From a virus (lineage: Duplodnaviria; Caudoviricetes), in the IMG/VR virus record IMGVR_UViG_3300040985_001289, positions 1 to 63,710 of that record: a stretch of DNA of 63,710 nucleotides. One strand, given 5' to 3'. A program made the position numbers and the translations under genes. How positions within the stretch are numbered: position 1 is the stretch's first letter; each line of letters starts with the position of its first letter. A model generated the notes under the pieces. That model searched no databases. It worked only from the letters and a program-made list of their open reading frames with translations, and was not told where the DNA came from. Shown piece after piece: positions 39,897 to 56,690 of this stretch.

Positions 39897-40976
39897 CTAA
39901 CTGTCATTTCTGCTCCTATTGATTGCCTTCATTATCTCGTAGGCGATTTGGGGAACTATCGCATTCCCAAGACCTTTTAATCGATTCGTGCGAGTTCCGA
40001 GACGCTTCCTTTCGTCATTAAGTCTGTCCAAGAAGGTGGATAGCCCATCATCCATTCGACAAAGGCGGGTTGCAACTTCAACCCAGTTTCTTTCCCACGT
40101 TCGATACAATCTGGAAGGCTGTTTGTTTCGAATTTTCTCCCCTTCAATTCCGTTCTGCTTGAACTCCCCTTGTAATCCCTCGTTGCTGGAGTTGGTAACA
40201 TTTTTATCACCTTCCCCAATCTCGGAACTTGCTTTCCATTTGATACTTGATACCCTTCCTGATTCTGAGCCTCTGGAGTTGGCAGCATTGTCCGACTCAT
40301 CACAATTTCCAGATTGTTGAACTTGTCCTTCTTCCTGGATTCGGTTATGTCGCCGGTCATTGATTTGCGAGGTGTTGGAATTAAGCTCACCTGATCCGCC
40401 AGTCCCAAACTGTGCGAATTCCCGTTCTTCGCTACACGCCGGCCGGCTTCCGTCAACTCGGCTTCCGGATGTTCTACTTCTTGGGTTGTTGGAGTAGCCA
40501 ACAATCCAGACTCTATCCCTTCTGTGCGGGGCGTTTTTGGCACAAGCTGGAATAATAATCGGTTGGACTTCGTAACCTTCCATTTCCAACGAAGTACACA
40601 CCTCGTCGAGTCCCATGTTGATGAGACCAGCAACATTTTCACCGATGACATAAGTGGGCTTGAACTTTTTAATAACTCCGAGCATTTCTTCCCAGAGCCA
40701 ACGGTCATCTTCCGTGCCGCGTCGTTTCCCGGCTTGACTGACTGGCTGGCATGGAAACCCCCCGGTAATAATGTCAATTGGTTGCTCAATTTCCCACTCC
40801 TTATAGTTTTTAATATCCCCCAAGTTCGGCACTCCTGGCATACGGAGTTTGATCAACTCACAACAGTAGGGGTCAATTTCTGACACTGCAACAGTCTTCC
40901 ACCCAGCCCAATGTGCTGCGAGTTCAAAACCAAGAATCCCTGCGAAAAGCCCCAAGTGATTTAGTTTATTTAACAT
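39897..40976 (-). CDS. C5 cytosine DNA methyltransferase, alpha polypeptide
   Basis: Motifs I FAGILG, IV GGFPCQ, VI ENV, VIII RDRVW, X LGNAIVP; motif IX degenerate. Confidence 0.9.
   Translation of the reverse strand: MLNKLNHLGLFAGILGFELAAHWAGWKTVAVSEIDPYCCELIKLRMPGVPNLGDIKNYKEWEIEQPIDIITGGFPCQPVSQAGKRRGTEDDRWLWEEMLGVIKKFKPTYVIGENVAGLINMGLDEVCTSLEMEGYEVQPIIIPACAKNAPHRRDRVWIVGYSNNPRSRTSGSRVDGSRPACSEEREFAQFGTGGSGELNSNTSQINDRRHNRIQEEGQVQQSGNCDESDNAANSRGSESGRVSSIKWKASSEIGEGDKNVTNSSNEGLQGEFKQNGIEGEKIRNKQPSRLYRTWERNWVEVATRLCRMDDGLSTFLDRLNDERKRLGTRTNRLKGLGNAIVPQIAYEIMKAINRSRNDS
39977..40789 (-). CDS. Nested alternative-frame beta polypeptide of the C5 MTase (motif IX + repeated TP modules)
   Basis: 270-aa open frame inside alpha; 'LQPAFVEWMMGYPPSWTD' motif IX; four (L/I)xTP repeats. 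Confidence 0.75.
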   Translation of the reverse strand: MSNQLTLLPGGFHASQSVKPGNDAARKMTVGSGKKCSELLKSSSPLMSSVKMLLVSSTWDSTRCVLRWKWKVTKSNRLLFQLVPKTPRTEGIESGLLATPTTQEVEHPEAELTEAGRRVAKNGNSHSLGLADQVSLIPTPRKSMTGDITESRKKDKFNNLEIVMSRTMLPTPEAQNQEGYQVSNGKQVPRLGKVIKMLPTPATRDYKGSSSRTELKGRKFETNSLPDCIERGKETGLKLQPAFVEWMMGYPPSWTDLMTKGSVSELARID

Positions 40977-41559
40977 CTGTTGACTCGTCTTTAAGCCCAA
41001 TTTCTTCTAGTGCGTATCCTTTTCTGTCAAGCAAAGAGTGACACGTAGGGCATAGTATCCACACCATATGTAGTTGCGTGTTTGCTACAGTTCTCCACGC
41101 CCCTTGTCTTCTATATTCTGGTTTGTGACATATTTCCAACACCCTATTTTCACCACAGGCTTGACATTCTTTTGGAGCATTTGGGTATCTTTTCAAAAAT
41201 CTTTTCATTTTTGAGTCTTTGCCATTCTTCTTTGAATATACCTTTTGTTGCTTTTTTTGTTTCTCTGATTTATTTGTTGACCAGTACTTAGACATCGAGT
41301 TTCTTGCGCTTTTTCTTGAACACTCATCCGAACAATGTTGCCTATTTTTACCGTCCTTGTAGTTGGGATAGAATTTCTTGCCACACTGCTTGCAATACCT
41401 ACCGTCTTTTAATTTTATCCCTTTCTTTTCCCTATAAACCTTAGAACTGCATTTCCTTGAGCAATATTTTTGCCGTGCCGTTTTAGCAACAAAAGATTGA
41501 CCACAAACAATACAGTATCTAATTTTATCAGCAAAAGACACTTGTTTTCCCTTAGCCAC
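40966..41559 (-). CDS. HNH-like endonuclease with N-terminal zinc-ribbon repeats
   Basis: CxxC...YCS..C repeats; 'CQACGE...LEICH...LCPTCH'; GTG start after GGAGG. Confidence 0.7.
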   Translation of the reverse strand: MAKGKQVSFADKIRYCIVCGQSFVAKTARQKYCSRKCSSKVYREKKGIKLKDGRYCKQCGKKFYPNYKDGKNRQHCSDECSRKSARNSMSKYWSTNKSEKQKKQQKVYSKKNGKDSKMKRFLKRYPNAPKECQACGENRVLEICHKPEYRRQGAWRTVANTQLHMVWILCPTCHSLLDRKGYALEEIGLKDESTDVK

Positions 41560-47277: not shown

Positions 47278-47353
47278 TGGTGGCAGTGGGTTGAATCGAA
47301 CAACCGTCTTTGTCCTTGTTAGGGATTATGCTCCTCCACTGAGCTACACTGCC
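47278..47353 (-). tRNA. tRNA, anticodon AAC (nominal Val), distorted anticodon stem, encoded CCA
   Basis: GGCAGTG/CACTGCC acceptor, GCTC/GAGC D-stem, GGTTG-TTCGATT-CAACC T-arm, ACCA end; 76 nt. Confidence 0.85.
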
Positions 47354-54639: not shown

Positions 54640-55164
54640 TCACTTCTCCTTGTACTGTGTTGAATCTATCTCATTTAGCCGAGCAAACTCCCCAAAGTTC
54701 TCTTTTGCAAACTCATTATAGGCGAGTGCTGCGTCTATCTCATTATTAAATAGACCAAGATACTTGTTGACTCCTGCAATTTTTGCCTGAGCCATCCACT
54801 TGTTTTCGAGTTTCACCCATGTCACACCCTTGTACTTTGATGACAGGGGCTTTCCTTTAAAAGTTTTTTTCTTTCTGGCATTTATTACGTTTTGTGAATT
54901 CGTGCAAGTTCTTAAATTATCCCTGCGGTTATCAAGCCCATTGTCGTTAATGTGATCAACGTAGACTTGGCGATCAGTCACCCCCATTATTAGTCTGTGC
55001 ATAAGAAAATGAGTCCCGTCGAAATTTCTTCTTGCATAATATGTATCCCTACCTTTCTGGGCATTCCACCTAAACTGATTCAGCCATTCATAATCAGCAT
55101 CATCAACAAGAGCTACGTAAAGCCCCTTATATTTACCCAACTTAGACAATTGTATCTCTTTCAT
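54640..55164 (-). CDS. HNH endonuclease with C-terminal AP2 domain
   Basis: 'MHRLIM...VDHINDNGLDNRRDNLR' and 'SKYKGV.W....KWMAQ...YLGLF..E.DAALAYN'. Confidence 0.9.
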   Translation of the reverse strand: MKEIQLSKLGKYKGLYVALVDDADYEWLNQFRWNAQKGRDTYYARRNFDGTHFLMHRLIMGVTDRQVYVDHINDNGLDNRRDNLRTCTNSQNVINARKKKTFKGKPLSSKYKGVTWVKLENKWMAQAKIAGVNKYLGLFNNEIDAALAYNEFAKENFGEFARLNEIDSTQYKEK

Positions 55165-55331
55165 CATCCCTCCAAAAGCCAAAAGCGCACACCGTCGGAC
55201 TCGAAAGTTGAGAGACAACCGAGTTGGTGAGCGATGTGCGCTTCTGAAAAGTATGTAAAAAATCTGGAATCTAATCTTGCGGTTGTCTCTCAACGACTCT
55301 TTAATATAGTTCCAATATTCCCCAAATGCAA
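55165..55331 (-). promoter_or_regulatory. Promoter plus A-B-A'-B' structured leader (copy 4)
   Basis: TTGCAT-17-TATATT; A 55280-94/A' 55207-21 (15 bp perfect); B 55232-43/B' 55183-94. Confidence 0.7.
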
Positions 55332-55364
55332 GCGAAAAATGCGGGGGGGTGAGAAAAAGATTAC

Positions 55365-55447
55365 AAAAAAGGAACTCCCAGCATGTAGGTTGGCGACGCT
55401 GGGAGTGATATTAACTAAAAAACAATCGTTAAGGAAAAACGAGTGTC
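55365..55447 (-). ncRNA. Candidate ~80-nt small RNA
   Basis: Promoter TTGACT(55481)-17-TATATA, then intrinsic terminator (hairpin 55374-55406 + U6); no ORF between. Confidence 0.5.
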
Positions 55448-55645
55448 ACTTATATATAATCAATCAAACCCCAAAAGTCAACCCTGAGAAAAAAGATTAC
55501 GAAACGTGCAGAATCGTTATCAACTTCTGGCCCTGCACCAAAACGCTTGTGGCATTACAAAAGGCCAGTGTCAAACATGGATTATTAGCATGTTCTGGCC
55601 CGTCAAAATAGTTGAATATGTGCAATTGAAATGCTTAATAGTCAT

Positions 55646-56208
55646 TATCTCGTCAGAATGACTCGAATAGTGACGAGATAGTTTAGACGTTTTACTTACT
55701 CTTGTTTATTTCTGTCGGGACATAATGCAGGATTCTATGATTTAAAGACGACAATTTGTCTTTAATATATTGGACATTAACCCGGTTGTGTCTCACAATG
55801 TGACGTTTCGTGAGACAATACGCAAGTACAATATGTCCTACACTAACCACATAATCGCACAATAACGTAGGCAATGTTATATGCAAGTTTAATGTTAAAG
55901 TGGAAACTTGACATCACAGATTGTGATCTCAAAAGAGAGACCCTCGGCAAAGGAGAACCGAGGGTCATGGGAGTATCACTGCAATTAAGCGGATGCAGTC
56001 AACGCAATAGTCCAGCTATCAAGTTTTTCTTGACAACTCATGTTTCAGTATTTCTGATACACAGCCCGATGTTTCAGTAAAAGTGAACTATTAAGGATTT
56101 CCTAATAGTTCAAATTCACCAACAGAACTGTTGCCAACAAAAGTGGTATTGAAATGAGTTGCACAGGATTACTTGATAACTCAGTTATTAGGAAATCCTT
56201 AATAACTC
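55646..56208. repeat. Array of palindromic operator-like sites, including four copies of a 27-bp motif
   Basis: Inverted repeats at 55646-80, 55742-65, 55789-817, 55908-32, 55939-66; 27-mers at 56013, 56085, 56156, 56182. Confidence 0.75.
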
Positions 56209-56300
56209 AAATAAAGCCCGTAGCGAAGACTTTAGCTTTAAGTACACATTATATCCTCTTTCTCATTAGAATCCAAAACAGGCACGGTACAGCGTCTATT

Positions 56301-56690
56301 TTACGCCTTATTTCGTATATTCAGAATGAAGTCTTCACGACCCATGACATTATTGAACGCACCCAATGCGATCTTACTCGAATACACGGCATCCTCCCCA
56401 CGAGTCAACCCAATGAGCACACATCCTTTCGTGTTGCGCGGAAAGTTCCCAACATGGATCAGAACCGAGTCCCGTTCAAAGACTCCCTTTATATGCCACA
56501 CATTCTTTCGCTTAACCGCCTTCGGGAGAAACTTACACAGATAGTTGCCCAACGGAATGCAACTCTTGAAAGGTTCATTACCGCTCCACGGAAGTTCTAA
56601 CGTGTGGAATACTTCTCCGGTATCACACTCCAATAATCCAAGTGTGCTGTCTTCTGTGAACTCGTCACGGGTTAGGGTTACTTGTCTCAT
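56301..56690 (-). CDS. DUF5675-family protein (candidate endolysin)
   Basis: 'TLELPW..N....SCIP.G.Y...LIHVGN....TKGCVLIG'. Confidence 0.75.
   Translation of the reverse strand: MRQVTLTRDEFTEDSTLGLLECDTGEVFHTLELPWSGNEPFKSCIPLGNYLCKFLPKAVKRKNVWHIKGVFERDSVLIHVGNFPRNTKGCVLIGLTRGEDAVYSSKIALGAFNNVMGREDFILNIRNKA

Follow-up and report, generated by a model that had tools for sequence, protein, structure and literature searches.

Palindromes resembling gene-internal elements of the RhuM and ORF6N families in a gene-poor gap of a seawater phage

The DNA considered here is a Caudoviricetes record of the IMG/VR virus collection (63,710 bp, estimated completeness ~51%) that occurs in seawater metagenomes, and its whole length is called the window in the following. 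Our subject is a gap of this window poor in open reading frames (ORFs), at positions 55294-56300, which is flanked by two minus-strand genes and holds a series of palindromes, some of them related in sequence to palindromes that lie inside the protein-coding genes of the RhuM and ORF6N families. An inverted-repeat scan (stems of 9 bp or more, no more than one mismatch, loops of at most 9 nt) gave 69 hits in the window, and the two 500-bp bins at ~55500-56500, with 8 and 6 stems, are its densest, the other 126 bins holding 0-3 each.

A first-pass annotation, made from the sequence alone, had described part of this region as lacking a credible gene and as holding at least nine inverted repeats, among them four 27-bp variants of one motif with the last two abutting. 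The gap is wider than had been noted, and the ORFs within it, of 31-68 residues, match nothing in Pfam or PHROGs, the collections with which they were compared, rather than with large protein databases. The four 27-mers lie as described, at 56013-39, 56085-111, 56156-82 and 56182-208, with 16, 22, 16 and 20 of 27 positions self-complementary, start-to-start spacings of 72, 71 and 26 nt, and base 56182 common to the third and fourth; they are 59-81% alike in mixed orientation, with 16-18 of 27 positions identical in direct orientation. The count of nine is roughly right as a number, but not all nine fold significantly alone. When 11 stretches were folded as single-stranded DNA, seven reached z <= -2.1, namely 55640-84, 55738-69 (-5.1), 55786-820, 55936-69 (-5.5), 56043-80, 56082-114 (-3.9) and 56179-211; taken alone, 55903-37 (z -1.5), 56010-42 (-1.9), 56153-85 (-1.7) and 56116-48 (-0.4) fold weakly.

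Two covariance models were used to compare these palindromes with those of genes. R1 derives from a search with the RhuM gene of a viral contig (L025), which led to 80 RhuM loci in many phyla, and was built from 61 distinct 33-nt hairpin segments of RhuM genes; it describes an 11-bp dyad with a 5-nt A/T-rich centre and was searched over the whole window with filters off. R2 was built from 21 ORF6N-gene hairpins of two phyla and describes a 12-bp dyad with the centre CA-AWT-TG. The features of the gap and its borders are as follows, with the strand given where there is one.

54640-55293, minus: homing-endonuclease gene with HNH_3 (PF13392, E 2.9e-7; phrog_99, E 5.6e-38) and an AP2 match under the cut-off; low-coordinate border of the gap.
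55354-68 and 55490-504: 15-nt direct repeats, spacing 136, bounding a unit of ~137 bp.
55355-55410, minus: terminator-like hairpin and U-run, GC-rich stem at ~55375-55406; RNA fold -17.7 kcal/mol, z -5.1, equalled by 0/200 shuffles.
55646-55680: inverted repeat, perfect 10-bp arms, 15-nt spacer, z -2.4; no support for the ORF6N type (R2 on 55642-84, 11.4 bits, E 3.7).
55742-55765: palindrome with core GACAATTTGTC, z -5.1; R2 match unsupported (55737-70, 13.3 bits, E 1.1).
55789-55817: inverted repeat, arms of 8-10 bp, inner TCACA-A-TGTGA, z -2.1; none of the listed R2 matches covers it.
55908-55932: ORF6N-type orphan palindrome (R2 55903-55937, 26.3 bits, E 3.2e-4, the best R2 match of the window); reads LTSQIVISK / LRSQSVMS.
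55939-55966, minus: strong intrinsic terminator, 10-bp GC-rich stem followed by UCUCUUUUG; -20.5 kcal/mol, RNA z -6.5, single-stranded DNA z -5.5.
56013-56039: RhuM-type orphan copy 1 (R1 56010-56042, 17.3 bits, E 0.07); reads AIKFFLTT.
56040-56079: 11-nt exact direct repeats ATGTTTCAGTA, 29 nt apart, with a small hairpin (56045-57); matched in part by R1 (12.5 bits, E 1.2).
56085-56111: RhuM-type orphan copy 2 (R1 56082-56114, 33.0 bits, E 6.8e-6); reads TIKDFLIVQ.
56116-56213: ~98-bp segment that includes copy 3, copy 4 and a small, not significant palindrome at 56119-32; one unit of a direct duplication (97 bp).
56156-56182: degenerate RhuM-like copy 3, a poor palindrome with 16/27 positions self-complementary; reads VAQDYLIT and by eye resembles L090; no R1 match at E <= 10.
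56182-56208: RhuM-type orphan copy 4 (R1 56179-56211, 38.5 bits, E 2.8e-7, the best of the window); reads SVIRKSLIT.
56301-56690, minus: DUF5675 gene (PF18925, E 2.6e-25; phrog_1501); high-coordinate border, last gene of the upstream minus-strand block.

The terminator-like hairpin at 55355-55410 was omitted by the terminator scan because its loop exceeds 8 nt. The palindrome at 55742-65 may belong to an ORF6N/DinD-like '..TNC..' subtype, a weak assignment suggested by its likeness by eye to L194, L195 and L252. The gap forms the 3' end of a minus-strand gene block, a non-coding part that varies between strains; within this block a metallophosphoesterase-like gene and a DUF1353 gene lie upstream of the DUF5675 gene. 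Promoter-like sites occur at chance level (4 found, 4.0 expected), and Rfam 15 gave no match at the gathering score over the gap, only chance-level small nucleolar and small RNA rows with E 2-4.

The link to RhuM and ORF6N genes was first hinted at by three short foreign metagenome contigs which match a palindrome of the gap and nothing else (X1 at 56174-56207, X2 at 56079-56114 and X2 at 55905-55939), and which, read by eye beyond the matched letters, continue as RhuM-like (..ASDGKNY.., ..KEGDR..) or ORF6N-like (F.F......LRSQ) coding sequence. The first-pass annotation had proposed such a match, to palindromic segments embedded in genes of these two families, and this proved sound, as both models, derived from independent bacterial genes, hit the gap; its codon readings are likewise right, SVIRKSLIT standing, like the AIKFFLTT of copy 1, among the ORF translations and TIKDFLIVQ and LTSQIVISK being read by eye. 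By model score, the phage copies are thus shown to be sequence relatives of gene-internal palindromes, of the RhuM type at 56085-111, 56182-208 and, weakly, 56013-39, and of the ORF6N type at 55908-32, and the sites of the gap comprise at least two unrelated sequence types. Outside the gap, R1 found nothing better than E 1.4 in the window, and neither model gave a match with E <0.1 elsewhere in these 63.7 kb, which amount to about half of the genome. The consensus GAGTTATYAAG-N5-CTTRATAACTC, with at most three mismatches, is matched twice in the window and not at all in 100 shuffles. Furthermore, copies 2 and 4 still have CAAA, the 3' flank of the '..IVQ' subtype of RhuM, which points to descent and not to convergence.

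The genes themselves are missing, as the first-pass annotation had stated. Profile searches with PF13310 and PF10543 (both at E <= 10) and with PF02498, PF04383 and PF10547 found nothing in the six frames of the window, a record of ~51% of the genome, and domains of the RhuM, ORF6N, Bro-N, KilA-N and P22_AR_N families are absent from it in any frame. The palindromes of the gap are therefore orphan copies and not decayed whole genes, and the empty six-frame search rules out that a complete gene of the RhuM or ORF6N family has decayed here into a pseudogene.

Within RhuM genes, the palindrome occupies a fixed place. An anchor located the segment in 68 of the 80 RhuM loci, and in 67 of these 68 a stem of 9-16 bp is present at the same codons, which specify (S/A)(V/T)I(K/R)x(Y/F)(L/R/F)I(T/V). 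Among 544 control windows from these genes, 12 reach a 9-bp stem, and synonymous resampling of the RhuM peptides yields at least 9 bp in 120/1360 and 11 bp in 16/1360 trials, the latter against 48/68 observed. In the alignment, 93.4% of cells are paired, both partners have been substituted in seven of the 11 pairs, and none of 500 shuffles is as good; these paired changes alter both of the amino acids concerned, as in K..L to R..R or V..T to T..V. Since the 80 loci are all relatives of one query, an unbiased sample was added, consisting of PF13310 matches in 151 proteobacterial genomes. About half of its full-length PF13310 genes have an R1 match at the first residues of the domain; ~25 full-length genes have none, and of 20 of these that were checked, 16 form stems of 10 bp or more, of quite other sequence, exactly at the domain start, and the remaining four a core of 6-7 bp. 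The start of the Pfam RhuM profile coincides exactly with the palindrome (in the protein encoded at L025:1058-2101, at residue 75), and by its position in the sequences the RhuM palindrome marks a module junction or breakpoint. A search of the five RhuM loci submitted to Rfam returned no match at E <= 1, and a sequence search found no solved RhuM protein structure.

Two side observations concern the same domain. Many proteins of ~320-340 residues have only profile positions 1 to 58-87 of RhuM in common, and at one further locus (G181:C66) the hairpin abuts RhuM profile position 112.

A palindrome of different sequence is found in ORF6N genes. All 19 canonical ORF6N genes carry a 9-17-bp dyad with at most two mismatches, 10-12 codons after RFPxxFxFQL, and two more loci were recognized by eye; with at most one mismatch, a dyad of at least 9 bp is present in 15/18 genes, as compared with 3/116 control windows and 26/900 synonymous resamplings. 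Both sides have changed in nine of the 12 pairs, and the encoded peptides diverge widely (NLKSQFATSS, HLRRHFGTSN, MVSQNAIPS, ELVANCDRL). The identical 15-mer GTCACAAATTGTGAC stands at the same place in two ORF6N genes and is read as SQIVT in one (L139) and, in another frame, as VTNCD in the other (L155). In Bro-N genes a stem of at least 8 bp is found in 18/28 loci, ~15 of them at the equivalent place, just before a conserved T(L)GGxQ turn. The palindrome hence occurs at one fixed position in nearly all RhuM and canonical ORF6N genes examined and in about half of the Bro-N genes. As to codon phase, the central base of the ORF6N palindrome lies in phase 0 in 15, phase 1 in two and phase 2 in one of 18 genes (L136-L164), and one ORF6N gene (L154, ~560-660) contains three tandem in-frame units, ILKTQSATSN, PGLKSQNGTSN and PSLRSQSVTAN.

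The synonymous resampling and the 15-mer used in two frames reject a peptide motif that is palindromic by chance. A hairpin of the sense mRNA is not favoured either, the mismatches of the sense-strand stems being G.T in nine, A.C in 20 and other in 14 cases (a small sample of non-independent cases), with no excess of G-U. The centres of the palindromes are A/T-rich, and their symmetry often extends down to one central base. Taken together, the paired changes, the resampling and the mismatch pattern indicate that the conserved feature is the complementarity of two DNA arms and not the peptide, and that it is unlike a sense-strand RNA helix.

Copies without a gene are not confined to this phage. 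Over the 151 genomes, R2 found 32 distinct sites, of which 21 lie in PF10543 genes, two in DinD/Bro-N-like genes and one in a gene fragment, while eight are orphans at six places. Arrays of orphans of two or three subtypes are located between hsdM and the ORF6N start in three type I restriction-modification loci (L168, L196, L190). In the first of these (L168:1150-1305), a 51-codon ORF shares ATGA with each of its neighbours, hsdM and ORF6N, and is made up for the most part of three hairpin units, each of another subtype. Either a translated mini-protein or an operator array may be present here; its orphan nearest to the ORF6N start has a 15-bp core identical to that of the gene's internal palindrome. 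A related hsdM/ORF6N arrangement was seen in a second genome (L196:1054-1124). As a general rule, an upstream auto-operator is rejected: a related second copy within 1.5 kb was found at three of 21 ORF6N loci and none at the other 18, and in most of the 22 genomes with R2 matches the intragenic site is the only one. One orphan ORF6N-type palindrome (L191:882-916, 38.6 bits) lies at most ~50 nt upstream of a gyrA start and 1.1 kb from an ORF6N gene; gyrA is a supercoiling-sensitive gene.

Decayed RhuM pieces in bacteria retain the hairpin (L209, L210, L215), and the ORF6N profile matches of fragments stop at positions 61-62, just past the palindrome. Among viral contigs, two unrelated families have adjacent intergenic RhuM-type orphans of different subtypes (L038; L014/L033/L041). 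A scan of IMG/VR with the 25-mer core gave 47 stretches, three of them in RhuM-like ORFs and most others like ordinary intergenic hairpins just after genes; these stretches were not counted as a special phage family, their number being, by a rough estimate, compatible with generic hairpins. A stricter tandem pattern gave 13 stretches, of which ten are unrelated iteron-like direct repeats and three represent one other family. In one family of IMG/VR contigs (L260, L262-L267), two or three tandem 34-nt direct repeats with TTATACACA-like words stand between a terminator and a conserved gene of 162 residues; they look like iterons or DnaA-box-like sites unrelated to the palindrome element.

The gap itself varies between strains, as far as can be seen from contigs, which cover it patchily in metagenomes and RNA libraries. 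A direct duplication of 97 bp has copies 2 and 4 at its ends, copy 4 being nearest to the reverse complement of copy 2 (92% complementary), and a strain variant (X3 and X24, a DNA run and an RNA library) lacks this unit, joining 56115 to 56244 with 33 letters between. One X3 contig joins 55353 to 55491 and thus skips the repeat-bounded unit of ~137 bp, and a single variant contig joins 55520 to 55840, skipping ~55521-55839. At copy 1, one X3 contig joins 56010 to 56029 and one X24 contig has unlike letters before 56029; read by eye, the left arm of copy 1 has given way in the variant to another, whose pairing with the right arm, itself unchanged, is better.

We favour an explanation, tentatively and with a rough probability of 0.4, in which the palindromes derive from genes, maintain themselves and are retained as stem-loops, in a 3' region that varies between strains and includes two real terminators. 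Short pieces would have been copied out of RhuM- or ORF6N-type genes. Quasipalindromes are imperfect inverted repeats which are corrected arm against arm during replication, as set out in PMC7202029, and by such template switching each arm of a copy would template the correction of the other. The palindrome could then outlast its gene because it keeps itself intact, and the copies would subsequently be duplicated and deleted locally. The phage would tolerate or keep them since stem-loops may be useful just upstream of the terminator at 55966-55939, where they would fold in the late transcript and protect its 3' end or cause pausing. The copies do sit between the DUF5675 stop codon (56301) and this terminator, a place in which plain stem-loops are ordinary. 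For copies 1 and 2 the best fold is that of the minus-strand RNA, copy 2 at -19 kcal/mol (z -6.5) and copy 1 at -11.2 kcal/mol (z -4.3), two plus-strand arm mismatches of copy 1 becoming G-U pairs. We do not think that the copies are sequence-specific operators of a protein encoded in the window: among the families scanned, it has no cognate gene of the KilA-N, Bro-N, ORF6N, RhuM or P22_AR_N type (other helix-turn-helix families were not scanned), and the sites are no more alike than stated above. In the gene families, the free drift of the palindrome sequence and its usually single copy per genome likewise argue against a classical shared operator.

Several points weigh against this favoured explanation. 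The pairing of copies 3 and 4 is better on the plus strand than in RNA of the minus strand, and a short U-run (CUUUUAC) follows only one of the RhuM- and ORF6N-type hairpins, copy 2. A stem-loop role needs no particular sequence and leaves unexplained why three unrelated viral contigs carry mixed RhuM-type subtypes side by side. The only RNA-library contig over the gap, across 56029-56563, may be DNA, and self-correction in the gap is assumed by analogy with the literature (PMC7202029). In a divergent strain, intergenic pieces differ at 4/235 letters and DUF5675 pieces at 21/320, 5/203 and 8/136; fewer intergenic than genic differences weakly suggest a constraint beyond mere pairing, a comparison that is confounded by overlapping pieces, patchy cover and possible phage mosaicism.

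A low intergenic divergence would fit another explanation, which we consider unlikely, namely that the gap is an array of binding sites and possibly a decoy. The palindrome, as duplex or as cruciform, would be the DNA site that RhuM, ORF6N and Bro-N proteins recognize by their N-terminal, KilA-N-like domains. Every such gene would carry its own site within it, and the phage array would recruit the proteins or titrate them away, whether they are supplied by the host, by co-resident elements or by the half of the phage genome missing from the record. The two sequence families of sites correspond to two protein families, mixed-subtype arrays recur in viral contigs and beside ORF6N genes in type I restriction-modification loci, and in L168 the orphan nearest to the ORF6N start has that gene's own core. 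Only Watson-Crick complementarity is kept, with A/T-rich centres and a symmetry that often reaches a single central base, which fits a dyad or cruciform at the DNA level. Moreover, RhuM-like proteins are predicted toxins in restriction-modification and defence loci, according to PMC3710099. On the other hand, the absence of a second copy at 18 of the 21 ORF6N loci and the solitary intragenic site of most of the 22 R2-positive genomes mean that neither a regulon nor an upstream operator is the rule. The palindrome drifts freely, even between frames, and any protein binding it specifically would need to change in step with the residues that its own site encodes. The window has no domain of the five families named, and foreign RhuM-like contigs from the same samples match at only ~86-89% over 35-36 letters. 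The decoy reading of the gap, which the first-pass annotation had put forward, accordingly stands somewhere between unlikely and very unlikely in our estimate. We judge it quite unlikely, too, that the palindrome is a functional cis-element of RhuM, ORF6N and Bro-N genes, acting as cruciform-capable DNA or as a transcript, by which these widespread regulators and toxins of prophages and of restriction-modification or defence islands would be governed or would recognize nucleic acid, with gene-free arrays in phages and bacterial loci serving as counter-defence decoys or competitors.

The same orphans might instead be inert debris, the graveyard of an accessory-gene turnover beside a homing endonuclease, in which scars persist by self-correction and have no role. 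We regard this as unlikely. Whole modules are present or absent between strains, decayed bacterial gene pieces keep their hairpin, copy 3 is already degenerate, and the strict tandem pattern gave only one other IMG/VR family (3 of 13 stretches), all of which speaks for scars. But a phage genome seldom carries 1 kb without a use, divergence between strains is lower in the intergenic pieces than in the adjoining gene, and one variant contig has, by eye, a different and better-pairing left arm at copy 1.

An antisense or sponge RNA is very unlikely. A transcript of the gap would pair with the mRNA hairpin of RhuM or ORF6N genes and silence it, for example via RNase III, or would soak up a hairpin-binding factor; a palindrome being its own complement, a transcript of either strand could do so. 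The copies resemble the gene hairpins in sequence, several subtypes are present, the region is likely transcribed as a 3' untranslated region, and a precedent in kind exists in the solitary repeat units of phages that mimic CRISPR repeats (PMC10651486). The gene hairpins, however, show no sense-strand G-U excess, so that a role at the mRNA level is not indicated for them; the pairing of two stable hairpins is slow; and Rfam matched neither the gap nor the five RhuM loci.

Very unlikely, too, is a replication origin or other DNA-handling site (for packaging or injection) made of inverted and direct repeats. Its appeal lies in the dense mixture of such repeats in ~1 kb of non-coding DNA and in the three well-spaced RhuM-type copies, which start 72 and 71 bp apart. 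Against it, no replication gene adjoins the gap among the neighbours matched by Pfam or PHROGs, no iteron of a single sequence is repeated, whole modules are dispensable in strain variants, the GC skew simply tracks gene orientation, and the likeness to RhuM and ORF6N genes would go unexplained. A CRISPR array or solitary repeat units can be dismissed, the units being only 16-18/27 alike in direct orientation and copies 2 and 4 being closer when inverted.

Comparison with known systems helps to place the two levels of the observation, the gap and the gene-internal palindrome. REP/BIME elements are enterobacterial palindromes of one family which occur in hundreds of copies per genome, are mobilized by the RAYT transposase and can stabilize upstream mRNA. 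The gap resembles them as a cluster of short imperfect palindromes that point either way, lie in intergenic or 3' untranslated DNA and differ in copy number between strains; unlike them, its copies are confined to one gap of the window, fall into at least two types and have relatives inside protein-coding genes. Rickettsia palindromic elements, of ~100-150 bp, are sporadic in-frame insertions into many unrelated genes and share with the gene palindrome that palindromic DNA lies within an ORF and that the protein tolerates the encoded peptide, whereas the gene palindrome measures 25-35 bp and has a single homologous place, which it occupies in almost every member of related families. The origin of phage lambda consists of four tandem iterons inside gene O, for which binding and origin function are proven. 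In both cases dyad sites are embedded in the gene of a DNA-binding protein and co-inherited with it; the gene palindrome differs in that there is usually one site per gene (three in frame in L154), in that the host genes are not known replication initiators and in that it is known from sequence only.

Among phage elements, the best analogue for the decoy reading are the RNA anti-CRISPRs (Racrs), solitary repeat units that mimic CRISPR repeats, as described in PMC10651486. Like the gap, they are phage non-coding DNA with orphan copies of a nucleic-acid element of a host locus, but they copy a functional RNA whose protein partner is known. Quasipalindrome hotspots (PMC7202029) resemble the gene palindrome in that arm-on-arm correction would yield just such paired changes without selection on structure; they are known as mutational hotspots of laboratory genes, and not as a superfamily-wide conserved feature or as a source of orphan arrays. 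Finally, the hairpins at 55966-55939 and ~55410-55355 on the minus strand fit the definition of intrinsic terminators, with a GC-rich stem and a U-run, in contrast to the palindromes of RhuM and ORF6N type, which have AT-rich stems followed by a run of at most four U.

The gap alone is perhaps no more than a decorated phage 3' end, and the region itself may be mundane. Of wider interest are three very common protein families of phages and defence islands, RhuM, ORF6N and Bro-N, with a DNA palindrome at one homologous position, a feature which appears to be undescribed: in a full-text literature search covering main texts and not supplements (PMC3710099, PMC9881135, PMC5704556 and PMC5771137 included), no published description of the gene-internal palindrome was found. 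Paired substitutions preserve the palindrome over the amino-acid sequence, even across reading frames. This may reflect a self-perpetuating DNA symmetry, a molecular drive that shapes protein sequence over deep time, or else an unrecognized cis-element of RhuM, ORF6N and Bro-N systems, RhuM being a predicted toxin. If the latter were true, decoy arrays would constitute a counter-defence principle analogous to RNA anti-CRISPRs and aimed at a different class of systems. Since orphans form arrays both in phages and next to the ORF6N genes of type I restriction-modification loci, the question is directly testable, and for annotation the palindromes are of use as marks of gene-fragment breakpoints and of a Pfam domain boundary.

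As for the surroundings of the gap, GenBank phages gave no DNA match to the window, and tblastn with the two genes neighbouring the gap found relatives at 24-40% identity only. With the 283-residue metallophosphoesterase-like protein as query, no related locus was found among viral or metagenome contigs, and a protein search returned an identical protein and one fragment, nothing else. One X3 contig joins 56692 to 57530 and skips the whole gene of this protein, which may thus be accessory in the strain variant. A plus-strand ORF of 148 residues runs antisense through the DUF5675 gene and matches neither Pfam nor PHROGs. At the other border, the TTG start listed for the HNH/AP2 gene gives an N-terminal extension of ~43 residues without a family match; the true start is probably an internal Met near 55165 (MMKEIQ..), which would widen the gap to ~1.1 kb. 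Few of the large proteins of the window have PHROG matches, one with a clear family being a DNA methyltransferase (39897-41000, minus strand; phrog_363, E 2e-71), and the sole Rfam or ARAGORN match of the window is a tRNA-Val with anticodon AAC at 47278-47353 on the minus strand.

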